A DNA stretch of 61,133 nt from Gemmatimonadales bacterium (GTDB lineage Bacteria > Gemmatimonadota > Gemmatimonadetes > Gemmatimonadales > GWC2-71-9). This document shows, piece by piece, positions 2,370 through 53,887 of the stretch. The stretch is taken from assembly GCA_036523455.1 (NCBI GenBank), contig DATDED010000243.1, forward strand, positions 1-61,133, read 5' to 3'. The position numbers were made by a program, and so were the translations under genes. Below the pieces are notes generated by a model, which searched no databases, was not told the DNA's origin, and saw only the letters and a program-made list of their open reading frames with translations. Numbering within the stretch: position 1 is the first letter of the stretch; every line of letters begins with the position of its first letter.

Positions 2370-2454
2370 GGGGGAAGAGGGAAGAGGGAAGAGGGAAGGG
2401 TAAACCACACGGGTCGAAGAAAGTCCCCTTTCCCCTTCCCTCTTCCCCCTTCCC
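2370..2454. repeat. Inverted pair of G-tract (GGGAAGR)n modules (hairpin / G-quadruplex-capable intergenic element)
   Basis: The left arm (2370-2404) is gggggaagagggaagagggaagagggaagggtaaa. The right arm (2425-2454) is cccctttccccttccctcttcccccttccc, whose reverse complement is gggaagggggaagagggaaggggaaagggg. The spacer is 20 nt. The element lies in the 142-nt gap between the ubiA-like gene and ubiX. Confidence 0.9.
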
Positions 2455-5032: not shown

Positions 5033-6558
5033 CAGCGGGTCCCTCCGGTCGAATCAGCCGCTGCCGGACGCACCAGGGTCGCGACGGTGCGGTTGGATTT
5101 CGCGAAATAGGTCCGGGCCACGCGCTGCACGTCGGCCGCGGTCACGCGGGCGACGGCGGCACCGTCCCGGAAGGTCTGCCGCCAGTCGTACCACAGGGCT
5201 TCGCTCTGGGACAGCTGAAACGCGAGCCCGAAGTTGTCCTGCAGGCGCTGGATGGCGCCCGCCTGTACCTGGTTGCGTACGCGCTCCAGCTCCGCCGCGC
5301 TGGGCGGCTCGCGCTCGAGGCGGCCCAGCTCTTCGTACACGGCGGTTTCGATCTCCTGCGTCGTGTGCGGGGCGATCGGCACTCCGGAAAACGTGAAGAG
5401 CCTGGGATAGAGCTGTCCCGGCGACTGACCGGAAGAGACCGACGTGGCGACCCGGTCGCGGATGACGAGGCGCTGGTAGAGCCGGGAGGTCCGCCCGCTG
5501 GTCAGCACGGCCGATAGGACCTGCAGCGCCGGCGCGTCGGCGTGCCGGGCGCTCGGTACGTGGTAGCCGATCAGGACCTGCGGGTTGGCGTCGAACTCGA
5601 CGTCGATGCGGCGCTCGCCGTGCTGCGCCGGCTCCTGGGTCACGACCGGCCGGTGCGGCTCGCCCGGCGGCACGTCGGCGAAGTAGGCGTCCGCCCACGC
5701 GGTCATCGAGTCCACGTCGATGTCGCCCACGATCGCGACGACGGCGTTGTTCGGTCCGTAGAACCGCCTGAAGTACTCCTGGGCGGCCTGGCGCGTGACC
5801 GCCTGGATCTCGCTCGCGACGCCAACCACGGGCCGTCCGTAGGGGTGGGCGCGGAACGCCGCCTGGAGGAACTCCTCCCGCAGCAGGCCGGCCGGCTGCG
5901 TCTCCACGCGCAACCGGCGCTCTTCCATCACGACCTCGCGCTCCGAGTAGAACTCGCGCAGCACGGGGTTCCTGATGCGGTCGCTTTCCAGCACGAACCA
6001 GAGTTTGGCGCGGTTGGCCGGGAGCTGGAAGAAGTAGTTGGTCAGGTCGTTCCCGGTGGAGGCGTTGAGAAACTGCGCGCCGTTCTCGGTGAGGATGCGA
6101 TCCAGCTCGTTGGAGACCACGAAATGACGCGCCGAATCCTCGAGCTGCTTGAGACGGCCGCGCAGGGCTTCCTGGCGGGCGCTGTCCACGCCGGCGCCCT
6201 TGCGGAACTCGGCGGTGAACGAGTCGGCCACCGCGTCGATCGCGGGGAACAGCGCCTGCTCGGCCGCGTCGTCGGTCGTGCCGATCGAATGGGTCCCCTT
6301 GAACAGCATGTGCTCGAACAGGTGGGCGGTACCCGAAATCCCGGTCCACTCGTCCACGCCGCCGGCGCGGAAGTGCGTGACGAAGGAGACGGTCGGCGCG
6401 CCGCTGCGACGCAGGAACAGGAATGTCATCCCGTTGGGCAGGACGTGCTTGACCACCGGCAGCCGCTCGCCCGGGGAAGACTCCTGCGCGGGAACGCGCA
6501 CCGGAGCCGCGAGTGTCAGGGCGATGGCGCAGACCAGGAACCGCATCGGAAACCTCAC
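5032..6558 (-). CDS. M16-family zinc peptidase (catalytic subunit)
   Basis: The 508-aa ORF has a signal peptide and the inverted zinc motif HxxEH (GTAHLFEHMLFKGT). Confidence 0.85.
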   Translation of the reverse strand: MRFPMRFLVCAIALTLAAPVRVPAQESSPGERLPVVKHVLPNGMTFLFLRRSGAPTVSFVTHFRAGGVDEWTGISGTAHLFEHMLFKGTHSIGTTDDAAEQALFPAIDAVADSFTAEFRKGAGVDSARQEALRGRLKQLEDSARHFVVSNELDRILTENGAQFLNASTGNDLTNYFFQLPANRAKLWFVLESDRIRNPVLREFYSEREVVMEERRLRVETQPAGLLREEFLQAAFRAHPYGRPVVGVASEIQAVTRQAAQEYFRRFYGPNNAVVAIVGDIDVDSMTAWADAYFADVPPGEPHRPVVTQEPAQHGERRIDVEFDANPQVLIGYHVPSARHADAPALQVLSAVLTSGRTSRLYQRLVIRDRVATSVSSGQSPGQLYPRLFTFSGVPIAPHTTQEIETAVYEELGRLEREPPSAAELERVRNQVQAGAIQRLQDNFGLAFQLSQSEALWYDWRQTFRDGAAVARVTAADVQRVARTYFAKSNRTVATLVRPAAADSTGGTR

Positions 6559-12103: not shown

Positions 12104-13534
12104 ATGCCCGACACCTTGATGGTCGGCGTCTCCGGAATCCGCGGCATCGTCGGCAAGGACCTGACTCCCGAGCTCGTCGCCCGTTACGCGGCCGCCTTCG
12201 GCGCGTGGGCCCGCACGGGGGGCGCGCGCCGTCCCCGGATCGTCCTGGGCCGCGACGCGCGGACGTCGGGCCCCATGTTCATGCAGGCGGCATCATCCGG
12301 ACTCGTGTCGGTCGGATGCGATGTGATCGACATCGGACTCACCACCACGCCCTCCGCGCAGCTCGCGGTGGAGCATCATCGCGCCGCGGGGGGGATCATC
12401 CTCACCGCGAGTCACAACCCGATCGAGTGGAACGCCCTCAAGTTCGTGGGCCCCGACGGCGTCTTCATCGACGAGACAGCGGGGGCGCAGGTACGTGCCC
12501 TGGTCGCCGAGGGACCGATTCCCCGCGCCGACCATGGCAACCTCGGCGCCGTCATCACCGACGGAGAGGCGTTGAAGCGGCACCTGGCCGCGGTAGTGCG
12601 GCTGGCCGGCGTGGACACGGCGCGGGTACGCAAGCGCCACTTCCGGGTCGCGCTCGACACCTGCCGCGGAGCGGGCGGAGCCATCATGCCGGCCTTGCTC
12701 GAGCGGCTCGGCTGCGAGGTCGCCGGCATCAATCTCGAGACCGACGGCCGGTTCCCGCGGCCTCCCGAGCCCATCCCGGAGCAGCTCGGGGCGCTGGGGG
12801 CCGTGGTGCAGCGGGTGCAGGCGGATATCGGCATGGCGGTGGACCCCGATGTGGACCGTCTCGCCCTCGTAGACGAGCAGGGGGAGCCGATCGGAGAGGA
12901 CTACACGCTGGCGTTCGCGGTCAGAGCGGTGCTGGGAGGAAACGGGAAGGGGGAAGGGGGAAGAGGGAAGGGTAAAGGCGCTGCCGGTGACACGACGCCC
13001 GAGTCGCGGGTCGTGGTGTGCAACCTCTCGACCAGTCTCGTCGTGGAAGACGCGGCGCGCGACTGCGGCGCCCTGGTCGTCCGGGCGCCGGTGGGTGAAG
13101 CCCACGTGGCGCGGGCGATGATCGAGCGTGGCGCGCCGATCGGGGGGGAGGGAAACGGCGGCGTGATGTACCCGGCGCTCCACGTTGGACGCGACGCGCC
13201 GGTCGGAGCCGCGCTGATCCTCACGCTCCTGGCGCGGGACGGGCGCCGCGTGAGCGAGCTGGTGGCGGCCTCGCCGCGGTACGCGATCGTGAAGGACAAG
13301 GTGCCGCGGAGCCGGACGTCGGGACTGACACAGGTCTACGCGGCCCTGCGGGCGCGGTTCGCGGATGCGACGGTGGACGAGCGCGACGGACTGCGGCTGG
13401 GCTGGCGCGACCGCTGGCTGCACGTGCGGCCCTCGAACACCGAGCCGATCATCCGGTTGATCGCGGAGGCGCCGACGGCGGCGGAAGCGCGGCAGCTGGT
13501 GGACGTGGGACGAAACCTATGTGCGGAATCGTAG
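12104..13534 (+). CDS. Alpha-D-phosphohexomutase (phosphoglucosamine mutase / phosphomannomutase type) carrying an in-frame repeat insertion
   Basis: The product has GVSGIRG, the phosphoserine loop TASHNP and the Mg loop DPDVDR. It overlaps glmS by 16 nt, which suggests a GlmM-like role. The segment NGKGEGGRGKGKG is encoded by the G-tract repeat at 12944-12979. Confidence 0.8.
   Translation: MPDTLMVGVSGIRGIVGKDLTPELVARYAAAFGAWARTGGARRPRIVLGRDARTSGPMFMQAASSGLVSVGCDVIDIGLTTTPSAQLAVEHHRAAGGIILTASHNPIEWNALKFVGPDGVFIDETAGAQVRALVAEGPIPRADHGNLGAVITDGEALKRHLAAVVRLAGVDTARVRKRHFRVALDTCRGAGGAIMPALLERLGCEVAGINLETDGRFPRPPEPIPEQLGALGAVVQRVQADIGMAVDPDVDRLALVDEQGEPIGEDYTLAFAVRAVLGGNGKGEGGRGKGKGAAGDTTPESRVVVCNLSTSLVVEDAARDCGALVVRAPVGEAHVARAMIERGAPIGGEGNGGVMYPALHVGRDAPVGAALILTLLARDGRRVSELVAASPRYAIVKDKVPRSRTSGLTQVYAALRARFADATVDERDGLRLGWRDRWLHVRPSNTEPIIRLIAEAPTAAEARQLVDVGRNLCAES
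12944..12979 (+). repeat. Single copy of the (GGGAAGR)n G-tract module, inside coding sequence
   Basis: The sequence gggaagggggaagggggaagagggaagggtaaagg shares gggaagggggaagagggaaggg (22/22), then aaagg after one T/G difference, with the reverse complement of 2425-2454. It also shares the ...gagggaagggtaaa end of 2370-2404. Confidence 0.9.
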
Positions 13535-15351
13535 GGTACACCGGTCGCAAGCAGGCCGCCGCAATCGTCCTGGAAGGCCTGAAGCGACTCGAGTACCGCG
13601 GGTACGACTCGGCCGGCATCGCCGTCGTGGGCGACGGCCGCCTCGAGGTGGTCAAGGCGGCCGGGAAGATCTCCGCGCTGGAGCAGGTGCTGGGCAGCCG
13701 GCTCCCGGCGGGCCGCACCGCGCTGGCGCACACCCGCTGGGCCACCCACGGGGCGCCCACCGACGTGAACGCCCACCCGCACTCGGACTGTGGCGGCACG
13801 CTCGCCGTCGTGCACAACGGCATCATCGAGAACGCCACCGCGCTGCGGAAGGCGCTCACGGGACGGGGCCACGTGTTCCGCTCCGAGACGGACACCGAGG
13901 TGCTGGCCCACCTGATCGAGGAGCTGCACGGGGCGGGGGCCTCGCTGGGCGATGCCGTGGTGGCGGCGCTGCAGCAGGTGCAGGGCACCTACGGGATCGG
14001 CGTGGTGTCGACCCGGGAGCCAGACACGATCGTCGCGGCCCGGTGCGGCTCGCCGCTGCTCGTGGCGATCGGCTCGGGCGAACACTTCGTGGCCTCCGAT
14101 GCCGCCGCCGTGCTGTCGTACACGCGGTCGGTCGTGTATCTAGACGACGGCGAGGTGGCCATCGTGCGGCCCGATGACTACCGCATCCTCGATCTCGCCG
14201 CCGTCGAGAAGGTCAAGGCGGTCACGCGGGTGGAATGGGACGTGGGCACCATCGAGCGTGGCGGCCACGCGCACTTCATGCTGAAGGAGATCCTCGAGCA
14301 GCCCGAGAGCCTGCGCAACACGTTGCGCGGACGCCTGCTCGAAGAGGAAGGCGACGTGCACCTGGGCGGGCTGAACGTCTCCGACGAGGAGCTGCAGCGC
14401 GTCAACCGGATAGTGTTCACGGGCTGCGGCACGTCGTGGCACGCCGGGCTGATCGGCGAATACATGATGGAGGAGCTGGCGCGGCTGCCGACCGAGGTCG
14501 AGTACGCCTCGGAGTTCCGCTATCGCAACCCGATCGTGGACGACCGCACGCTGGTGGTGGGGATCTCGCAATCGGGCGAGACGGCGGACACCCTGGCGGC
14601 GTTGCGCGAGGCGAAGCGGCGCGGGGCCCGCACCCTGGGTCTCGTCAACGTGGTGGGCAGCACGATCGCGCGGGAGGTCGACGGGGGCATCTACCTGCAC
14701 GCCGGTCCCGAGATCGGCGTCGCCTCCACCAAAGCGTTCACCAGCCAGATCGCCGCGCTGGCTCTGCTCACGCTCAAGATGGGGCGGCTGCGGACGCTCT
14801 CGATTCTCCAGGGGCGCGAGGTGGTCCGTGCGCTGGCACGGTTGCCGGAGCTCGTCGAGCGTACCCTCGCCAAGGCGCCGGAAGTCGAGCAGCAGGCGGA
14901 GCGCATGATCCGCGCGACGAACGTGATCTACCTGGGCCGCGGCTACAACTTCCCGGTGGCGCTCGAAGGGGCGCTGAAGCTCAAGGAGATCTCCTACATC
15001 CACGCCGAGGGGTATCCCGCCGCCGAGATGAAGCACGGGCCGATCGCCCTGATCGACGACCGGATGCCGGTGGTGTTCATCGCGCCCCGCGACGCGGTCT
15101 ATCAGAAGGTGCTCTCGAACGTGGAAGAGGTGAAGGCGCGCGGGGGCCGAGTGATCGCGGTCGTCACCGACGGCGATACAGGCGTGGCGGGCCTGGCCGA
15201 ACACGCGTTCTCGATCCCCGAAACCCTCGACCTGCTCACGCCGGTGCTCTCGGTCCTGCCGCTGCAGCTGCTCGCCTACTACATCGCCGTGCGCCGCGGC
15301 TGCGACGTGGACCAGCCGAGGAACCTGGCCAAGAGCGTCACGGTGGAATGA
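13519..15351 (+). CDS. glmS: Glutamine--fructose-6-phosphate aminotransferase (isomerizing)
   Basis: The product has the N-terminal nucleophile MCGIVGY, two SIS-type segments and the C-terminal ...NLAKSVTVE. It is 610 aa. Confidence 0.95.
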
Positions 15352-15800
15352 AGGTGGTCCTGCAGCGCGTCTCCCGCGCCTCCGTTCGGATCGAGGGGCG
15401 CGTCGCGGGAGAGATCGGCACGGGATTCGTGGTGCTCGCGGGGTTTGCTCCCACCGATACCGACGCGACGCTGGCCTGGATGGCCGAGAAGATCCTGTCG
15501 CTGCGGCTCTTCGCCGACGATGCGGGCAAAATGAATCGTGGACTGGAAGAGCTGGGCGGCGCCGGGGTGCTGGTCGTCTCCCAGTTCACGCTGTATGGGG
15601 ACGCCCACAAGGGACGGCGACCCAGCTTCATCGCGGCCGCGCCGCCCGAGGTGGCCATCCCGCTCTACGAGCGGTTCGTGGCGCTGCTCGGCGAGCGCGC
15701 CGCACCGCTCGGCGTCGCCGTGGCGACCGGGGAGTTCGGCGCCATGATGGACGTGGAGCTGGTGAACGACGGACCGGTGACCCTGATTCTGGAGCGATGA
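15348..15800 (+). CDS. dtd: D-aminoacyl-tRNA deacylase
   Basis: ATG 15348 forms an ATGA overlap with the glmS stop. The product is [13 protein letters not shown]...SQFTLYGD...[10 protein letters not shown], 150 aa. Confidence 0.9.
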
Positions 15801-32462: not shown

Positions 32463-33109
32463 TCAGGCCGCCCGGGCGAGCGCCGCGATCGCCTCGCGCA
32501 GCTCGGGCATCCCGTGCCCCGTCTGCGCGCTCGTCACGACGATCTGATCCTCGTCTAGGGCGAGCGCCTGGCGCAGCGCGCTCTCCCGCTGCTGCTGTTG
32601 CGCGCGCGAGAGCTTGTCGGCCTTGGTCACGGCCACGAGCACCCGCGTCTCCGCGCCGGCCAGGAGATCCTGCATGGCGCGGTCTCCCTCGGAAGGCTCG
32701 TGGCGGATGTCGAGCAGCCACACGACTCCGGACAGCCGGGGGCGGTGCAGCACGTGGCGGACGATCCTGGAGAACGCGGCGAGGTCGGACTTGGAGGCGC
32801 GGGCGTAGCCGTAGCCGGGGAGATCCAGGAGATAGAAAGCGTGGTCGGTGGTTTGTGGTCGGTGGTCGGCGGGCTCCCCGGGCAGGTCCCCTCCGGCCAC
32901 CGACAACCGACCACTGACCACGTAGACGTTCAGCGCGCGGGTCTTTCCGGGCGTGGCGGAGACCCTGGCGATCCGTTGGCCGACAAGGGCGTTGATCAGA
33001 CTGGATTTCCCGACGTTGGAGCGGCCGGCGAAGGCGATTTCGGGAAGCGGTGGATCGAGCGGCGCGTCGGCGCGGGGGAAGGAGCCGACGAAGCGGGGCA
33101 GGGAGGCGG

Positions 33110-33113: not shown

Positions 33114-34360
<1,247 letters not shown>

Positions 34361-34402
34361 AGGACGTCTAGTATGGGAAGGGGGTGTGGGGAACGCAAGT
34401 GT

Positions 34403-35023
34403 TCACTTGGCTTTCCCGTCGCCCACTTCTCTAAGATTCGATATCACATGGTCGATGAGGCCGTATTCCTTGGCCTCTTCGGCCGACATGAAGCGGTCCC
34501 GGTCCATGTCCCGCTCGATGGTGTCCAGCGGCTTCCCGGTGTGCTTGGCGTACAGCTCGTTCAGCTTGGAGCGCAGGTAGAGGATCTCCCGGGCCTGGAT
34601 TTCGATGTCGGCGGCGGTGCCCTGGGCGCCCCCCGAGGGCTGGTGCATCATGATGCGCGCGTGCGGCAGCGCGGAGCGCTTGCCCTTGGTCCCCGCGGTC
34701 AGCAGGAACGAGCCCATCGACGCGGCCATCCCCATGCAGATCGTGTTCACCGGCGCGCGTAGGAACTGCATCGTGTCGTAGATCGCCATCCCGGAGGAGA
34801 CGAGCCCGCCGGGCGAGTTGACGTAGAGGAAGATGTCTTTCTCGGGGTTGTCGGCATCGAGGAACAGCAGCTGCGCGATGATGACGTTCGAGACGTCGTC
34901 GTTGATCGGCGTACCGAGAAATACGATACGGTCCATCAGGAGGCGGCTGAAGATGTCGTAGGTCCGCTCGCCCCGGCTGGAACGTTCGATGATATAGGGA
35001 GGATAAATCGTGCTCATCGCCAC
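34403..35023 (-). CDS. clpP: ATP-dependent Clp protease proteolytic subunit
   Basis: The 206-aa product has [11 protein letters not shown] (Ser) and IMMHQPSGG (His). Confidence 0.97.
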
Positions 35024-35024
35024 T

Positions 35025-36269
35025 TTAGGACTCCACGGTGGACTGGGAGAGGAGAAACGCGAACACCTTGTCTTCGGTCAGACCGCGCTCGAGGTCGCGC
35101 AGCCGCTTGTTCTTCTCGAGTGAGGCCCGCAGCTCGGGCGCCGTGATCTGCCGGCGCCCGGCCAGCTCGGCGATCTTCGCCTCGATGTCGGACGGGGTCG
35201 CCTGCAGCTGGTGATGCTCCACCACCCAGTCCAGCACCAGATCGCGCTGCACCTGCTGCGCCGCCAGCGGCTGGAACTCCGTGGCGAAATCCTGCAGCCG
35301 GTCTTCGGTGATCCCGTACGCCTGGGCGTAGGTCAGGATCACCCGCTCGACCAGCGGCCGCGGCGCGGTGACGCCGTTCGCCGCCACGATCTGCTTGATC
35401 AGCTCGGCGCGGACCTTCGCGTCCGCTTCGCGGGCGGCGTCGCGCTCCAGGTCCTCGCGCACGGCCCGCCGCAGCGCATCGAGCGATTCGAAGTCCCCGA
35501 TCTCCCGCGCGAACGCGTCGTCGAGCGCCGGCAGCTCCTGCCGCTTCACCTCGTGCAGCGTCAACCGGATCTCGCGCGTCTGGCCGCGCTTGGCCTCTTC
35601 GGGAAAATTGTCAGGGAAGCGGACCGTCGCGTCCACGGTCTCGCCCGGGACCAGTCCCATGACGCGCTCCTCCACCTCGGGGATCGCGCGACCTTCGCCC
35701 AGCACGAGATGATAGGGCTGCGGGTCCTTCGCCTCGGCGCCCTCGCGCTGCGCGATGGTGACGTGCACCAGATCCTTGAGCTTCGGCTTCTCCCCTTCGA
35801 CCGGCGCCCACGGCGCCTTCTGCTCGCGGAGCGTATCGAGCTGCTCCTGCACCTGCAGGTCGGTCACCGGGGCGACCTCACGCTTCAGCGTAAACCCGCC
35901 GAGCCGCGCCAGCGCGATCTCCGGCTTCACCTCGACGTGGAAGGTGAAGGTGACCGGCGTGCCCTCCTCCCACTTCAGGTCGTGGATGTGCGGGTCGGCG
36001 ATCGGCTTCAATGGCTCCTGCTCGAGCGCCCGGCGCCAGCTCGCCTGGATCAGGTCGCGCAGGGCCTGCTCGCGGATGTCGGCGGCGAACTGCCGACGGA
36101 TGATCGTCTCCGGTGCCTTGCCTTTGCGGAACCCGGGGAGACGGGCCCGCGCCTGATACGCACGGGCGGCCCTCCCCTCGGCCTCGCGCACCTGCTCGAC
36201 GGGCACGCTCACGGCGAGCGAGGCCGCACCGGGCTCCGAGGCCGTTTTTGTGATCTGGATGTCGGACAC
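35025..36269 (-). CDS. tig: Trigger factor
   Basis: GTG 36269 gives [23 protein letters not shown].... A FKBP-like middle and helical C-terminus follow, and the gene is in the conserved tig-clpP-clpX order. The 32-aa extension in the ORF track was rejected. Confidence 0.9.
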
Positions 36270-36381
36270 GGGAGGAAATCTAACCAGGGGTGAAAGGCAT
36301 GAAGAGGCGATCCTGACTCTTGAGATCGGCTTGAGGATCCGGCGAGATTCTTGCAAGGTCCCCAACGCCCGTGAAGGTCCG

Positions 36382-36963
36382 ATGTCCCAGCCCGATCTCG
36401 CTCTCCAGCACCTCCTCGAGCCCAGTCCCGAGATCGAATACCGCGCGTTTCCGAACGAGCGGCGCCGGAACCTGCTGCAAGAGACCCTCGAGGTGCCCGT
36501 GATGATCCGGGCGCTCGCCTTGCCAAAGGGAGGCCGAATCCTCGAGGTCGGGTGCGGGCGGGGTATCGCGCTGCCCCCGATTGCCCGGGCGCTCGAGCCG
36601 AGTCAGCTCGTTGGGATCGACATCGACCCGGAGCTGCTCGCCGCAGCCGGGAATCGGTTGCTCCAGTCGAGGGTAGTGGCCCAGCTCCGCTGCGCAGACG
36701 TTCGAGCCCTCCCGTTCCCGGACGCCTCCTTTGATTTGGTGATCGATTTCGGGACGTGCTACCATATCGCCGGTGCTGCCCGGGCTCTCGCCCAGGTCGC
36801 CCGTGTGCTGGCCCCGGGCGGAATCTTCGTGGAAGAGACGCGGTTGAGTCAGATCCTGTCCCACCCCATCCGCGCTTTCGGCCGACACCTTCCATGGACC
36901 GAGACAGGCAGTCTCGCGCCAGCCAGGTGGGGATTGCTGTGGTCGAGCCGGGTCAGGCGATGA
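36382..36963 (+). CDS. Class I SAM-dependent methyltransferase
   Basis: ATG 36382 is preceded by GAAGG. Motif I is RILEVGCGRGI, followed by DASFDLVIDFG and LAPGGIFV. The earlier ORF-track start overlaps the tig start region. Confidence 0.75.
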   Translation: MSQPDLALQHLLEPSPEIEYRAFPNERRRNLLQETLEVPVMIRALALPKGGRILEVGCGRGIALPPIARALEPSQLVGIDIDPELLAAAGNRLLQSRVVAQLRCADVRALPFPDASFDLVIDFGTCYHIAGAARALAQVARVLAPGGIFVEETRLSQILSHPIRAFGRHLPWTETGSLAPARWGLLWSSRVRR

Positions 36964-38021
36964 TCCCGAGGCGAGTCCTCGCAGCCGCCGCCGCGCTCTC
37001 GGCGCTGGTCGTCGCTCCTGTGGCGTCTCAGGCATGGCTGCCGCCGGGCTGCCGTCTGGCGCCTCAGCGTTACCTCCGCACGAGCGAGCGAACAGGAGCG
37101 CGGGAGCTGGTCATCGAAGTGGGACCCATCGATGTGCCGGCGCATTCGATGGCTCCTCACCAGCACGATCTGAGCTACCAACTCACGAGCGCGCCGCTCA
37201 CGGCTTGGATCAACGGCTTCCGCGTCGAGGTCGTCGACTCGTCGGGAAATGCCCTCCCGCGCTGGCTCCTGCACCATATCGTCACGGCGCGCCCGGCTAG
37301 CCGCGAGCTCTTCCTTCCGGTCACGCAGCGGTTCGTGGGAGTCGGCATCGAGACACGGGCACTGCGGCTCCCCGCGTGGCTCGCCGGTGCGCCGTTGCAC
37401 CGGGGCGAGCCCTTGCTCGTCAACACGATGTTCCACAACCCGACGGACACGGGCTACCACGCCGTACGGGTGAGGCTGGTTCTCGCCTACTCACAGACGC
37501 GGCCGTTGTTCGAGGTGTCGCCGTTCAATGTCGATGTCATGTTCCCGATCGGCTCGAAGGATTTCGACCTGCCCCCCGGCCGGTCCGTGAAGGTCTGGGA
37601 GGGAAGCCCCGCCGTCCGCGCTCGCATCCTCGTCCTGGGTGGGCATCTGCACCGCTACGCGCAATGGGCGGAGCTCGTCGACCTCACCACGGGCGCGACG
37701 ATCTGGCGCATGCATCCCGACACGGATGCGAGCGGCGCGGTCACAGGGATCCCGACGCATCTCCCCCGCCTCGGGCTCGGTCGGGTCATCGATCCGGGGC
37801 ACCGCTATCGGCTCACCGCGGCGTACGACAATCCGACGGGCCGGACGATTCCGCACGGCGGCATGGCCAAGATCGGAGGTCTGGTGATGCCGGCAGGCGG
37901 AGCGCACTGGCCGAGTTTGGATACACGGAACACCCTCTATCAGCAGGACCTGCGACGCTTGCTGCGCTACCAGTGCGGGTTCGAGGGACCGGAGGAGGAA
38001 ATGTTGATGATGGCTCCATGA
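36960..38021 (+). CDS. Secreted hypothetical protein with copper-monooxygenase-like His/Met motif spacing
   Basis: ATG 36960 forms an ATGA overlap with the methyltransferase stop. The signal peptide is MIPRRVLAAAAALSALVVAPVASQA. The ordered motifs WLLHHIV, TMFHNP, GGHLHRY and HGGMAKIGGLVM are present. Confidence 0.6.
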   Translation: MIPRRVLAAAAALSALVVAPVASQAWLPPGCRLAPQRYLRTSERTGARELVIEVGPIDVPAHSMAPHQHDLSYQLTSAPLTAWINGFRVEVVDSSGNALPRWLLHHIVTARPASRELFLPVTQRFVGVGIETRALRLPAWLAGAPLHRGEPLLVNTMFHNPTDTGYHAVRVRLVLAYSQTRPLFEVSPFNVDVMFPIGSKDFDLPPGRSVKVWEGSPAVRARILVLGGHLHRYAQWAELVDLTTGATIWRMHPDTDASGAVTGIPTHLPRLGLGRVIDPGHRYRLTAAYDNPTGRTIPHGGMAKIGGLVMPAGGAHWPSLDTRNTLYQQDLRRLLRYQCGFEGPEEEMLMMAP

Positions 38022-38070
38022 ACAGGGAGCCGAAGCGTGGTGTGGCGGTTGATCAGCGGCCCGCGGCCCG

Positions 38071-38089
38071 CCGCATCATCTTGATGCGG
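38071..38089 (+). terminator. Possible stem-loop downstream of 36960..38021
   Basis: The sequence ccgcatca-tct-tgatgcgg forms a perfect 8-bp stem. No T-tract follows, so this is weak evidence for a terminator. Confidence 0.3.
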
Positions 38090-38223
38090 TGATGGAGGCT
38101 GCAATCATGGCTCGAAACGACGGACGGTCAAGCTGTCATCACATCCCCCTCATCATCCCTTCAGGATCGGCGCTCTAGGCTGATGGTCGAGGCAATCGAC
38201 TTGTCCGGCACAGGAGGAGGTCC

Positions 38224-38811
38224 ATGAAGCCCTTCATTAAGTTCGCGGTATTGGCCACGGTGCTGGCCGCGCTCGCCGTCCCCGCAGGCGCGCAGCAGCG
38301 GTCCCTGATCTTCAGCATCTACGGCGGCGGGGCCGATCATCTGGCGGACCTGCGCAGCAGCCCGCCGGTGTGGTTCATGCCCGGCTACGACCTCGGCGCC
38401 AGCGTGGGGCTGCAGCTCAACGAGTACGTCGCCGTGCACACCGATTTCACCTACACGCGGAATCCCACGCGGGGCTCGACGGCCTTCGCCGGTGCGGACG
38501 TCAACCGGTTCTACTACGGGGCGCATGTCGAGGCCCGCTATCCATTGTCGATCGGGCTGGCCCCGTTCGTGTTCGGCGGAGCCGGAGCGGTCTCGGTGGA
38601 TCAGCTCGGGCTCGATCAGTTCAAGCCGTTCACGCGTCCGGCGCTGATGTACGGCGGCGGGCTGTTCTATCCGATCCCGCGCACCCGGATCGAGGCGTTC
38701 GGTGAGGTGAAGGGGCTGACCTACCGCTGGAACGCGGCCGGGTTCCACCGGACGATGTTCGACGTGACGTATTCGATCGGGGCGAGTTACCGCCTGCCGG
38801 TCAACTTCTAA
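38224..38811 (+). CDS. Small outer-membrane beta-barrel protein (OmpW/opacity-porin-like)
   Basis: GGAGGAGG precedes the ATG. The product has the signal peptide MKPFIKFAVLATVLAALAVPAGAQ-Q, an alternating-hydrophobic strand pattern and a C-terminal ...SYRLPVNF. Confidence 0.75.
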   Translation: MKPFIKFAVLATVLAALAVPAGAQQRSLIFSIYGGGADHLADLRSSPPVWFMPGYDLGASVGLQLNEYVAVHTDFTYTRNPTRGSTAFAGADVNRFYYGAHVEARYPLSIGLAPFVFGGAGAVSVDQLGLDQFKPFTRPALMYGGGLFYPIPRTRIEAFGEVKGLTYRWNAAGFHRTMFDVTYSIGASYRLPVNF

Positions 38812-38835
38812 GTCAACACCTGCCGGGTTCGACAG

Positions 38836-38863
38836 CGACGGCCGGGGGCTTCCCCGGCCGTCG
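38836..38863. terminator. GC-rich hairpin between the OMP gene and tRNA-Leu (bidirectional terminator candidate)
   Basis: The sequence cgacggccgggg-gctt-ccccggccgtcg forms a perfect 12-bp stem with a 4-nt loop, followed by ttcgtgt. Confidence 0.7.
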
Positions 38864-38898
38864 TTCGTGTCTCCGATGCCTCGGCCCAGGTCAGTAAG

Positions 38899-38981
38899 TG
38901 CTCGGGGGGAGACTCGAACTCCCACGCCCTTGCGGGCACTGGCTCCTAAGGCCAGCGCGTCTGCCGTTCCGCCACCCGAGC
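38899..38981 (-). tRNA. tRNA-Leu (anticodon TAG)
   Basis: I folded the reverse complement by hand. The acceptor stem is GCTCGGG/CCCGAGC and the anticodon arm is CTGGC-CTTAGGA-GCCAG. A long variable arm (TGCCCGCAAGGGCGT) and the T arm GGGAG-TTCGAGT-CTCCC follow, with discriminator A. No CCA is encoded. Confidence 0.9.
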
Positions 38982-38982
38982 G

Positions 38983-39222
38983 CTAGGGCTTCTGGATTCT
39001 CTTGCGCAGCGTCGAGACCGCCAGTCGAAAGGCGCGTATGTCATTGGGCCTGAGCCGCTTCATCTTCTTCAGGAACGCGTCGAGGTGCCGGATGTCGCGG
39101 AGCCGTTTTGCACGCTCTGCTTTCCACAATGTCTCGAACCTGCGGACCTGACGCCTCCACTCCGCTCTCAACTTCTCGGCTGCGTACTTGCTTGCCATGA
39201 GCCCCCGTCCTCTGTCCGTCAC
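38983..39222 (-). CDS. Small, highly basic hypothetical protein (doubtful)
   Basis: The 79-aa ORF (alternative ATG at 39198, MASKYAAEKL...) is Arg/Lys-rich and helical-looking. It lies in a locally A/T-richer stretch. Its stop codon is 1 nt from the 5' end of the tRNA. Confidence 0.35.
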   Translation of the reverse strand: MTDRGRGLMASKYAAEKLRAEWRRQVRRFETLWKAERAKRLRDIRHLDAFLKKMKRLRPNDIRAFRLAVSTLRKRIQKP

Positions 39223-39346
39223 ACCAATCTATAGGAACGGGGATGGTCCGCGATGCACCTGCATGGAACACCCGCGCGGGCTCGGGGACCAGCGTCTTCG
39301 AGGAGGTTTGCGCTTGGCCCCGGGAGTGTCATTATTGAGAGGACCC

Positions 39347-39736
39347 ATGCCAACCACCCTGCGGACGCTTCTGGCGCTGAGCTTCGTCGCCCTGGCCGCC
39401 GCGCCGCTCCAGTCGCAGCGGCGCAGCGACATCATCACGGCGGAGGAAATCGCCCGCGTGATCGGGAAAGGCCAGACCGCGTACGACGTCGTGCGCACGC
39501 TGCGGCCCCGGTGGTTGAGGTCCCGCGATACGATCCTGCAAGGAGGGAACACCGACCCGATCACGTCGGAGGGGCCGCACGTGTACCTCAACGACGTCGA
39601 CCAGGGCGACGTGGACTACCTGAGGACGATTCCGGCCGAGCTCGTCGCGGAGCTGCGCTGGCTCAGCGCCAACCAGGCGGCGAGCCGGTTCGGGCCCGCC
39701 AACGGACCAGGCATCGTCGTGACGCTGAAGCTGTAG
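39347..39736 (+). CDS. Hypothetical secreted protein
   Basis: ATG 39347 gives the signal peptide MPTTLRTLLALSFVALAAAPLQSQ. The product is 129 aa and I recognised no family. Confidence 0.55.
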   Translation: MPTTLRTLLALSFVALAAAPLQSQRRSDIITAEEIARVIGKGQTAYDVVRTLRPRWLRSRDTILQGGNTDPITSEGPHVYLNDVDQGDVDYLRTIPAELVAELRWLSANQAASRFGPANGPGIVVTLKL

Positions 39737-39738
39737 GC

Positions 39739-40694
39739 TCACCGCAGCGCGTCGGTCACCGCATCGAAGAACACCCGGTCGTCGATGACCGTGCCGCCCG
39801 TGGGCGTCGCGCGCGCGCTCCACACCACGATCACGACCCGCGCCACCGGATTCACGTACAGAAACTGCCCGTAGATCCCCTCCGCCGTGAACGCGCTGTC
39901 CCGCCGCGACGCCGCCGTCGTTCCGGTCCACCAGAGGTACCCGTAGTCGAGCAGCGTCCCGTCGCGCAGCCGCTTGGGCGTGGTCGCCTCCCGCACCCAG
40001 TCGGCGGGCAGGATCGAATCGCCTCCAACCACGCCGCCGGCGAGCACGAAGAGGCCGAATCGGCCGTAGTCGCGCAGCGTCGCGCTGAAGCCGCTGCCGC
40101 CGATCTCCACCCCGCCGGGCGAATCGAGCCACCAGGTGGCGTCCGCCTCCATGCCGACCCGGCTCCAGATGCGCTCGGACAGGTACGTCGCCAGCGGCCG
40201 CCCGACCGCGCTGCGCAGGATCTCCGCCGCGACCTGCGTCTCCCCGGTGTTGTAGTTGTTCACAGTGCCCGGCGGCGCCGCCCGGGGGAGGCTCCGCATA
40301 ACGGCCAGCGCGGACCCGGGAACCTGTGAGATCTGGGCCTCGAGCAGGCGGCGGCGGTCGGACGCAGGGTCGGTGTAGGTCTCGTTCCAGCGGACCCCCG
40401 AGGACATGGTGAGCACATCGCGGATGGACACGCCCTCGTACGCACTGCCGGCCAGGGACGGCACGTAGCGGGTGACAGGATCGGAGAGACTCGCGATGGC
40501 GCCTTGCCGCACCGCGGCTCCGATGAGGGTCGACGTGATCGACTTGGCGATCGACATCGACATCCAGCGTCATAGACCTGACGCACCGTCCCGATCGGCT
40601 CCCTGGCATGCGGGTTTGCCTGCTGGGCACGAGCCAGGCGCGCGCCCAGCAGCAGGAGCGCCAACCGGAATGCGGACGACGCCCGTACGGGCAC
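39739..40694 (-). pseudogene. Beta-lactamase-family serine hydrolase, apparently frameshifted near its SxxK motif
   Basis: GTG 40694 opens a signal peptide ORF (MPVRASSAFRLALLLLGARLARA-QQ...) that decays into Arg/Ser/Pro junk. A second frame (ORF 39739..40563) begins right after an in-frame TGA with (R-W-)MSMSIAKSITSTLIGAAV (SxxK) and continues with YNTGET. The junction lies at a gatgtc-gatgtc-gatcgcc tandem. Confidence 0.5.
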
Positions 40695-52856: not shown

Positions 52857-53770
52857 GGCCGCCCCTTGCGCAGCTGCTCGTACAGCTCGTCGAACAACGC
52901 CGCGCCACGCGCGAGGCGATCCACGTCGGCTGCATTGGCCCGGGCGATGCCGTCCAGCACGAGCTGCAAACCCGGTGTCTCGTCCCGCCCGAACTTGTCG
53001 TCCTTGCAGTCGATGTCGTGCACCATCTCACTGATCGCCTTGAGCGCCGGGTCGCGCAGGGCGAAGTGTCGACACAGTGTCTCGAAGGTGCAAAGATCGC
53101 CGTCATGCGTGAACTCCCCCTCGAACATGTCGAACCGGATCTCCCCGGGCTGGGGGTGATACTGCCTGGGAGCGACGAAGCGGAACTGCGCTTCGGGATC
53201 GACGAAGCGTCGGATCAGCCACGCGCTAGCGATCCGGTCTACGTAGAGTCCGGCGCGCGTGACCCAGACGCGGGCCTTCGGCCTGTCGGTGAGGGTGGAA
53301 GTCATCGGGGCTCCGGGTTGGGAGGTGCGGGTCGCCAGGGCCTCGAGCGCCGCCTCGGCGTCGGCACGCCCCTCGGCCGCAAATCGGTCCAGCGCATGGA
53401 CTTCGTGGAGGCGGCGGGTGAGGCGGTCCAGGTCCGCCGTACTGCCGCGGCTGGCTGCCACGATGGCCTCGTAGCCGTCGGTGCACGCGGCTCGAATCGC
53501 CTGTACCAGCCGCCGGTCGGTATCCGCGTCGAGAAACGTGGACTCGCACAGCGCCGCCTCCCCGCCGTCGGTCGCGATCTCGCGCGCCAACCATTCGAAA
53601 TCCTCGCGTGCCTCATCGCCCGCCGGCAGCGCATACACGGTGCGTTTGAGTGGCACGGCGCCGAGACGCTGGAGGCGGCGACGGACTTTTACGCGAAGGT
53701 AGTCCGGCTTGAGCGGGAGTTGGTGAATGAGCAGCAGCCAACGCTGTGTTGATTCTAGTGTATCTGACAT
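52853..53770 (-). CDS. ChrB-domain (chromate-resistance-associated) protein
   Basis: The N-terminus WLLLIHQLPLKPDYLRVKVRRRLQRLGAVPLKRTVYALP is characteristic of ChrB. The product is 305 aa. Confidence 0.7.
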   Translation of the reverse strand: MSDTLESTQRWLLLIHQLPLKPDYLRVKVRRRLQRLGAVPLKRTVYALPAGDEAREDFEWLAREIATDGGEAALCESTFLDADTDRRLVQAIRAACTDGYEAIVAASRGSTADLDRLTRRLHEVHALDRFAAEGRADAEAALEALATRTSQPGAPMTSTLTDRPKARVWVTRAGLYVDRIASAWLIRRFVDPEAQFRFVAPRQYHPQPGEIRFDMFEGEFTHDGDLCTFETLCRHFALRDPALKAISEMVHDIDCKDDKFGRDETPGLQLVLDGIARANAADVDRLARGAALFDELYEQLRKGRP

Positions 53771-53771
53771 G

Positions 53772-53787
53772 TGATACTATTGTATCA
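53772..53787. promoter_or_regulatory. Inverted repeat TGATAC-TATT-GTATCA in the A/T-rich divergent promoter region
   Basis: I read it directly from the sequence. GTATCTGAC also occurs twice (about 53760 and 53832). The region lies between the chrB-like start (53770) and the next plus-strand gene (53888). Confidence 0.3.
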
Positions 53788-53887
53788 AACATGCCAGCAA
53801 GCGCAAGGGCTTGCCGCTTGCCTATACACAGGGTATCTGACCCGGGTGGGTTTTTCGCCCCTCCCCAACGTCTCAGGAGTCTGCCCG

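Follow-up and report, generated by a model that had tools for sequence, protein, structure and literature searches.

Translated G-rich heptamer-repeat cassettes in glmM of Gemmatimonadota as probable arms of small repeat-hairpin elements

The short tandemly repeated repetitive (STRR) sequences of cyanobacteria are dispersed tandem heptanucleotide arrays and are described as intergenic. G-rich heptanucleotide simple sequence repeats (SSRs) have been reported from Xanthomonas (GGGAATC) and Nostoc (GGGGAYT) (Rehm et al., 2015; PMC4692102). The Rickettsia palindromic elements (RPEs) are small palindromes of about 100–150 bp that lie in frame in unrelated housekeeping genes and also between genes; they are described as having a family-specific consensus and conserved peptides and as not built of short tandem units (Ogata et al., 2000, summarized in PMC10969869). 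In this study, we analysed a 61,133-bp contig of a Gemmatimonadales metagenome-assembled genome (DATDED010000243.1; the whole stretch is called the window) and, within its glmM gene, a 36-nt block of G-rich heptamers that is translated. glmM is an essential gene and encodes a cell-wall enzyme. A small repeat-hairpin element is the probable source of the block, which would be its G-rich arm, translated and kept as a tolerated, inherited cassette in a flexible loop of the protein. What was observed directly is the anatomy of the block, its in-frame state and disordered location, the cassettes of its orthologues (complete hairpins included), the occurrence of arrays at other sites and in other genes, and the sharing of modules within genomes. 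The features at the centre of the argument are the following.

12104..13534, plus strand: glmM, archaeal-type phosphoglucosamine mutase of 476 aa (TIGR03990, Pfam).
12944..12979, plus strand: G-rich heptamer module, (GGGAAGR)x4 then GGGTAAAGG, translated GKGEGGRGKGKG; of the G-rich 5′ arm type of repeat-hairpin elements.
12932..13015, plus strand: variable GlmM loop, residues 277–304, LGGNGKGEGGRGKGKGAAGDTTPESRVV; domain II/III junction, site 3 of the glmM hot spots.
2372..2406, plus strand: left, G-rich arm of an intergenic hairpin, (GGGAAGA)x3 then GGGAAGGGTAAACC; begins 6 nt past the stop of a UbiA-family gene.
2425..2454, plus strand: right, C-rich arm of the same hairpin, (CCCCTTC)-type.

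The open reading frame 12104..13534 scored 483 bits against the TIGR03990 equivalog (curated cut-off, 439) and contains all four PGM/PMM Pfam domains (PF02878, PF02879, PF02880 and PF00408). The block, whose full DNA is GGGAAGGGGGAAGGGGGAAGAGGGAAGGGTAAAGGC, is read in frame on the sense strand as G-K-G-E-G-G-R-G-K-G-K-G, exactly as an earlier interpretation of the window made from its letters (the sequence-only reading) had proposed. Tandem Repeats Finder placed a period-7 array of 4.1 copies at 12944–12972, and the block contains five runs of at least three G, at 12944, 12949, 12956, 12965 and 12970. It uses codons that are rare in glmM and glmS taken together (AGA, 1% of Arg; AAA, 4% of Lys; GGT, 4% of Gly), which points to an origin at the DNA level and to a sequence not shaped by translational selection.

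The near identity claimed between the block and the arms of the intergenic hairpin is confirmed. The element at 2372–2454 separates the UbiA-family gene from a UbiX-like flavoprotein gene. It has a fold energy of −55 kcal/mol, and its arms hold 3.9 (at 2372) and 4.3 (at 2425) array copies by Tandem Repeats Finder. The block is identical to the left arm at 31/35 positions in register, the exact 19-mer GGGAAGAGGGAAGGGTAAA included, and to the reverse complement of the right arm at 27/29; the two arms are less alike (26/30) than the block and either of them. Both sequences are simple G/A repeats, but the notion that their likeness is a chance resemblance between low-complexity purine tracts is almost certainly wrong: the 19-mer with at most three mismatches gave six matches in the window and none in 100 dinucleotide-preserving shuffles, which rules chance out, and 20 copies across loci repeat two irregularities, the terminal GGGTAAA and a G/A pattern at position 7 of the unit. 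These 20 copies of the module, (GGGAMGR)n with a GGGTAAR end, include both window sites, two copies in L001 and a betaproteobacterial hairpin (Chitiniphilus), and show that it is dispersed over the loci examined, as anticipated. No canonical intrinsic terminator was found at 2372–2454, where a T run is absent. An Rfam gathering scan of the window matched only a tRNA elsewhere (38899–38981, minus strand) and none of the repeats, which rules out a known RNA family as their identity.

The block lies in a loop that is 20 residues above the family norm and is disordered in a structural model. A 19-residue gap opens opposite this loop in alignments to PDB 9du5 and 1wqa, and the anchor-to-anchor segment measures 40 aa in the window GlmM versus 20 aa in 87 and 19–22 aa in 114 of 146 representatives (clustered at 50% identity), in agreement with the earlier remark that the loop is unusually long. 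In an AlphaFold2 model of GlmM built on a 60-sequence alignment (pTM 0.87), residues 281–298, between helix 266–277 and strand 303–307, have a pLDDT below 50; the codon of residue 281 (12944–12946) is the first of the block. Given that Pfam domain II (residues 168–260) ends before the loop and domain III (299–390) begins at residue 299, the variable loop is the II/III linker.

Orthologous glmM DNA was recovered for 84 loci (L001–L205), and the region from DYTLAFAxRAV to VVCNLSTS was compared. An Arg/Lys/Gly-rich loop is present in 120 of the 120 best homologues (66–100% identity), of which those with names are Gemmatimonadales or Gemmatimonadetes, and GGRGKGK recurs in them. A GGRGKGK-type module occupies the same site in relatives of 99% to about 66% identity. 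The insertion in the window genome is hence not recent, and the idea of a recent insertion is ruled out. Across the 84 orthologues, the site is a hypervariable cassette of 7- or 8-nt tandem repeats, in frame, in which the repeat varies by lineage and the state is a G-rich arm only, a C-rich arm only or a complete translated hairpin. Its types include (GGGAAGG/GGGACGG)n, also given as (GGGAMGG)n, with a GGGTAAG end; (GGGAAAC)4, with the peptide GKRETGNGKR; (GGACGGTC)3–4, with RSDGRTVGR; and a short C-rich type, CGGCCGTCGGGCCGTCAGACCGTC, with RPSGRQTV. The last agrees with the GGACGGNC array at 21/24 positions in reverse complement versus 16/24 in direct sense. Complete in-frame hairpins occur in L149, L137/L141, L139/L145, L153/L166/L173, L160/L196 and L171, with fold energies of −30 to −70 kcal/mol and z-scores of −3 to −8 against shuffles. 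Among close relatives, L206 (97% identity) has a G-rich array with drift (GGGACGA GGGAGGG GGGACGG GGGAAGG GTAAAGGC), and L208 (90%) has likewise kept its G-rich array, with drift. Loop length at the site spans 8 to 35 residues, and its sequence is unconstrained. The sequence-only reading had itself named equal-length loops of unrelated DNA in orthologues as evidence that would count against an inserted module. Such loops, with non-periodic DNA, do exist in L126 and L127 (86–87% identity), but the wider data indicate that they reflect cassette turnover at a hot spot and not absence of the module.

A census of arrays with at least 2.8 copies in 634 kb (the window and the glmM loci) gave 113 arrays of period 7, 52 of period 8, 23 of period 6 and 18 of period 9; codon-shuffled controls gave 6 and 8 arrays for periods 7 and 8. 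No fewer than 134 of the 165 period-7/8 arrays are inside glmM, at four sites (residues ~35–40, 138–143, 272–295 and 398–402), the last three between Pfam domains. Sites 1, 2 and 4 hold arrays in 30, 8 and 32 of the 84 loci, all in frame, including a full hairpin at site 1 in L140; the window glmM has a clear array at none of these three. Arrays outside glmM are mostly intergenic hairpins, for instance in the glmS–dtd spacer. The median array length is 30 nt (interquartile range 27–31) whether the period is 7 or 8. Sense strands are G-rich in 107 arrays and C-rich in 20, and six arrays are neutral. GGA is present in 23 of the 29 distinct G-rich units of glmM arrays versus 14.1 ± 2.2 expected from shuffled letters, an excess that could stem from a shared ancestry of the units or mark a binding motif. 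In the inverted array pairs of all loci, the leading array is G-rich in 56 arm records and C-rich in two; in the window, the G-first pairs are 2372–2454 and 32840–32922. This order holds on both strands because the element is palindromic. As a separate observation, a short piece, CCCT(G)AAAGGAC..., is nested in the heptamer arrays of different lineages at site 3 (L194, L188, L181) and site 4 (L149, L158) and could be a smaller element aimed at arrays.

Arrays are also translated in other genes, beginning with one more in the window.

32840..32922, minus strand: hairpin of 83 nt in the gene for the EngB/YihA GTPase, (GTGGTCG)n ... (CGACCAC)n, translated in frame after KTRALNVY.

This insert, in a minus-strand gene that runs from 32463 to about 33060, folds at −54 kcal/mol and adds about 27 residues. 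At one loop of EngB, the number of extra residues ranges from 0 to about 35 among orthologues, some having no insert, and two orthologues contain near-perfect in-frame heptamer hairpins of GGGGAGT or GGGGCTC units (−70 and −74 kcal/mol). The called EngB proteins of the closest relatives (P0121–P0131 and P0153) are 145–178 aa long, start at or after the insert and lack the P-loop; gene callers appear to truncate EngB at the hairpin. Together with the orthologous in-frame hairpins at the glmM site, the EngB insert makes the comparison with in-frame Rickettsia palindromes, drawn in the sequence-only reading, a fitting one for the lineage. A scan of one genome per species with the pattern GGGAMGRGGGAMGRGGGAMGGG listed at least 120 loci, a sample and not a census, of which about 53 belong to Gemmatimonadota and many are hairpins; Streptomyces, cyanobacteria, Planctomycetota and Acidobacteriota are also among the matches listed. 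Among the listed Gemmatimonadota loci, 14 of 54 arrays are intragenic, and in 12 of these the sense strand is the G-rich one. The host genes encode RibF, the ligase/Prim-Pol linker of LigD, the linker of an accB-like BCCP, an MtaB-like radical SAM enzyme, an isocitrate/isopropylmalate dehydrogenase (Iso_dh), Fmt, ThiL (in two species), PrmC and, at site 2, GlmM.

Several results bear on how the modules come to be shared. Within a genome, arrays from different glmM sites are more alike than arrays of separate genomes are: identity reaches 90% or more in 13 of 76 pairs versus 3.5 expected, a count reached in none of 1000 permutations; kinship of the loci inflates the 13/76, and the effect is present in at least five unit families. 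In L001, sites 1 and 3 of one glmM gene carry the identical 32-nt module GGGAAGGGGGACGGGGGACGGGGGAAGGGTAA (32/32). Same-genome pairs among the scan matches listed share an exact string of 21.7 nt on average versus 13.4. Same-genome copies of the GGGAAGR family have unrelated flanks and spacers, which rules out, for that family, a classical MITE with a conserved interior. Copies of the GGGGAGT family have a loop in common. An element of about 88 nt, (GGGGAGT)3 ... GACGGTGAAAACC ... (ACTCCCC)2–3, occurs between genes in L208 (2877–2975) and in frame in the EngB gene of L209 (633–720), from another sample, the two being about 85% identical, loop included. The L208 copy lies in the orthologous UbiA–flavoprotein spacer, between homologous flanks, and its unit, GGGGAGY, differs from that of the window hairpin.

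The gene downstream of glmM offers one more comparison between close relatives.

13519..15351, plus strand: glmS, overlapping the end of glmM; its stop overlaps the start of dtd (ATGA, 15348–15351).

In L206, glmS and dtd are separated by an octamer hairpin of about 87 nt (5947–6040), (GGATAGNC)4 ... (CCATCCGC)4, which lies between two copies of ATGA, versus the single ATGA of the window (15345–15355) that serves both the glmS stop and the dtd start. Given this overlap, the window genome has no glmS–dtd spacer element. Gene order varies elsewhere: in L002 (8567–10451; GlmM about 85% identical), dtd directly follows glmM, with no glmS between them.

The elements are best read as RPE-like selfish or neutral elements made of G-rich heptamer repeats, in which neither the peptide nor the G-tract in the mRNA would have a required function. 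Such an element has about 30 nt of G-rich units, each 7 or 8 nt long, which a short spacer separates from the complementary array; the G-rich array is always first. In Gemmatimonadota, the elements lie just 3′ of stop codons and also within genes, where they would survive only at tolerant places such as disordered loops and inter-domain linkers. A T-poor array of G-rich heptamers offers no stop codon in any frame, and its A-poor complement likewise. Three does not divide 7, so all frames yield one cyclic peptide (GKGEGGR for GGGAAGG), and the G-rich strand encodes a flexible, hydrophilic, basic Gly/Arg/Lys/Glu peptide in any phase; insertions whose length is a multiple of three would for these reasons leave the enzyme intact. 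The linker between domains II and III of GlmM probably gained its cassette early in the lineage. Later remodelling would have involved the loss of an arm, the turnover of units and copying from site to site within a genome; the window lineage retains the G-rich arm and a degenerate tail. Spread would proceed by transposition-like insertion and/or by gene conversion or template switching, and copying between sites would both spread and homogenize the elements.

Several observations weigh against this explanation. The glmM loop of the window contains no hairpin (fold z-score −0.1) but a single arm with its partner absent, so that the hairpin origin of this copy is drawn from orthologues only. 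The DNA examined contains no transposase, no consistent target duplications and no terminal inverted repeats beyond the arms, although the window genes were not scanned for Y1 transposases; the one candidate target duplication, the 4-bp ATGA at glmS–dtd in L206, could instead be a selected retention of stop and start codons. At site 4, the arrays resemble expansions of the local sequence GTGGAACGCGG, and a local GTGGAACGCGGAGCGCGG apparently grows into (GGAACGC)4, which favours local slippage over insertion, at least there. Four sites in the 1.4 kb of glmM versus about one in some 20 kb of distinct flanking genes make pure neutrality insufficient, and phylum-wide persistence, the size of about four units and the sense-strand G bias (107 vs 20) could reflect selection. 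The metagenome loci come without taxonomy and were assigned to Gemmatimonadota through identity, synteny and source names.

Selection at the level of nucleic acid is one alternative, and an unlikely one in our judgement. The arrays would then be functional mRNA or DNA elements (G-quadruplexes (G4s), hairpins or protein-binding GGA repeats) that slow the ribosome for co-translational folding of the four-domain mutase or tune glmM–glmS expression. The location of three of the four glmM sites between Pfam domains agrees with this, but linkers are also the places most permissive for insertions. The strong enrichment of glmM over its neighbours, the G-rich sense strand in 107 of 133 arrays and the excess of GGA also agree, as does an array size of about 30 nt and four units, which is the minimum for a G4 and is the preference seen in PMC4692102. 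For the block itself, ViennaRNA predicts a three-layer G4 of −18.4 kcal/mol, but this lies within the range of composition-matched shuffles (−13.5 ± 8.5). The five G runs noted in the sequence-only reading are real; a G4 role finds no support and does not hold as a general, conserved property, because many orthologous units have no G3 run (GGAACGC, GGACGGTC) and, at site 3, the mRNA of about 20 loci carries the C-rich strand alone. The coexistence of hairpin, single-arm and non-repeat (L126/L127) states at one site, the EngB orthologues without any insert and the lack of a match to an Rfam family speak against a functional element as well. Selection on the protein is very unlikely. A basic, flexible Gly/Arg/Lys linker for contact with a partner, a membrane or nucleic acid, with the periodicity as a by-product, would account for the Arg/Lys-rich loop in all 120 best homologues, for GGRGKGK down to 66% identity and for the C-rich-arm forms that still read RPSGRQ. 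It does not predict the 7/8-nt periodicity of the DNA, the rare codons, the complementary second arms or the intergenic module, and the loop is free in sequence, 8 to 35 residues long and disordered in the AlphaFold2 model; outside the lineage, a segment 20 residues shorter is the norm.

Two further explanations, each improbable to a degree between these, concern how the arrays arise. If the arrays were purely local microsatellites, formed by heptamer-biased slippage in situ with inversions by template switching and no movement between sites, the arrays at site 4 that extend a pre-existing local motif and the same-genome copies with unrelated spacers and flanks would follow; a heptamer bias of slippage has been proposed before (cited in PMC4692102). 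Arm-length modules with the same irregularities at distant sites would not follow, be it the two window copies 10.5 kb apart (31/35), the 32/32 module of L001, the 35 nt shared by L027 and L042 or the 29 nt shared by L035 and L049, nor would the 88-nt element that recurs, loop included, at an intergenic and a coding site of different organisms. Since slippage by a single unit shifts the frame, homogenization by slippage is strongly restricted in coding DNA. The other possibility is that an active templated process, rather than passive slippage, writes and rewrites the arrays. At a DNA break, an enzyme might add about 30 nt of a G-rich 7- or 8-nt repeat, specific to the genome, to each 3′ end, in the manner of telomere healing, or a homing activity might be aimed at existing hairpins. 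Such a process would explain the near-universal G-first orientation, the constant arm of about 30 nt whatever the unit length, the same unit across the sites of a genome, the replacement of units at fixed sites among close relatives (the UbiA–UbiX spacer, window vs L208) and the insertions with short flanking duplications. Fragile palindromes that break recurrently would, on the same assumption, become self-perpetuating hot spots even in essential genes.

Taken as probable arms of repeat-hairpin elements, the cassettes show that small palindromic repeats have colonized essential genes in frame outside Rickettsia too; the same colonization is widespread in a free-living, high-GC soil phylum, by elements made of G-rich heptamer repeats. 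In Gemmatimonadota, the elements occupy flexible loops of many housekeeping proteins in frame and are swapped between lineages. With its four hot spots and three cassette states, glmM provides a natural series for the origin, turnover and tolerance of repeats, and hairpins of −55 to −74 kcal/mol are translated within mRNAs. Loop length in such enzymes should not be taken as functional divergence, and gene prediction is affected, as illustrated by EngB truncated at its insert.

Two features of the window stand apart from the repeats. About 6 kb around the tRNA (~34000–40000) has a G+C content of 0.65–0.675 versus about 0.70 in the rest of the window, and 53750–53793 consists of two tandem copies of the 22-nt unit TGATACTAGTGTATCAAACATG, each with the palindrome TGATAC-TAGT-GTATCA, operator-like in appearance.

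Our literature searches found no report of such repeats in Gemmatimonadota, and each of the described systems resembles them in part. REP/REPIN-RAYT systems and MITEs are likewise short palindromic repeats that are dispersed, have a consensus specific to the genome and often follow genes. The arms described here, however, have no GTAG/CGTC tag by eye, and no RAYT was noticed in the DNA examined (the window genes were not scanned for Y1 transposases); they differ from MITEs in that the arms are tandem repeats without other terminal inverted repeats and with a single candidate target duplication. The STRR sequences are linked to them by the scan, which also matched Nostoc, Calothrix and Oculatellaceae, where arrays of other heptamers lie next to the matches, whereas the STRR description includes neither copies translated in frame nor hairpins that turn over at fixed sites of a protein.

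The SSRs of Xanthomonas and Nostoc are alike in their heptamer units that start with a G run, their preference for about four units, their convergent (G-rich first) inverted pairs and the retention of location in related species while length and sequence differ (PMC4692102). The element at 2372–2454 belongs to this class by its roughly four units, its convergent pair, its position 6 nt past a stop and its location, kept in relatives with a changed sequence; the block and the arrays at 2372 and 2425, with 4.1, 3.9 and 4.3 copies of a heptamer, agree with the class definition of tandem heptamers that start with G3–4 and number at least two, with a mode of four. The glmM block departs from the class by being intragenic, where the SSRs are intergenic, near an upstream stop and rare in coding DNA. 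Whereas the SSRs are depleted in coding DNA, the Gemmatimonadota copies lie in frame in essential genes, complete hairpins included; they also have 8-nt units, their units are lineage-specific with a tendency to be shared within a genome, and the phylum is another one.

With the RPEs, as summarized in PMC10969869, the elements have in common a peptide added at fold-compatible positions and the combination of intragenic and intergenic copies. They differ from that description in having arms that are 7/8-nt tandem arrays, a size of about 75–105 nt and, in many copies, one arm alone (about 30 nt). The two kinds are unrelated in sequence, and the hosts here belong to a free-living phylum of high G+C content. 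The block measures 36 nt, and peptides vary with the unit, one 88-nt family being conserved at two sites; the window glmM loop is not palindromic, whereas orthologous cassettes and the EngB insert are. In-frame occurrence at permissive positions of unrelated housekeeping genes, as with the RPEs, is found here in glmM, engB, ribF, ligD, the accB-like gene, fmt, thiL, prmC and the Iso_dh gene.

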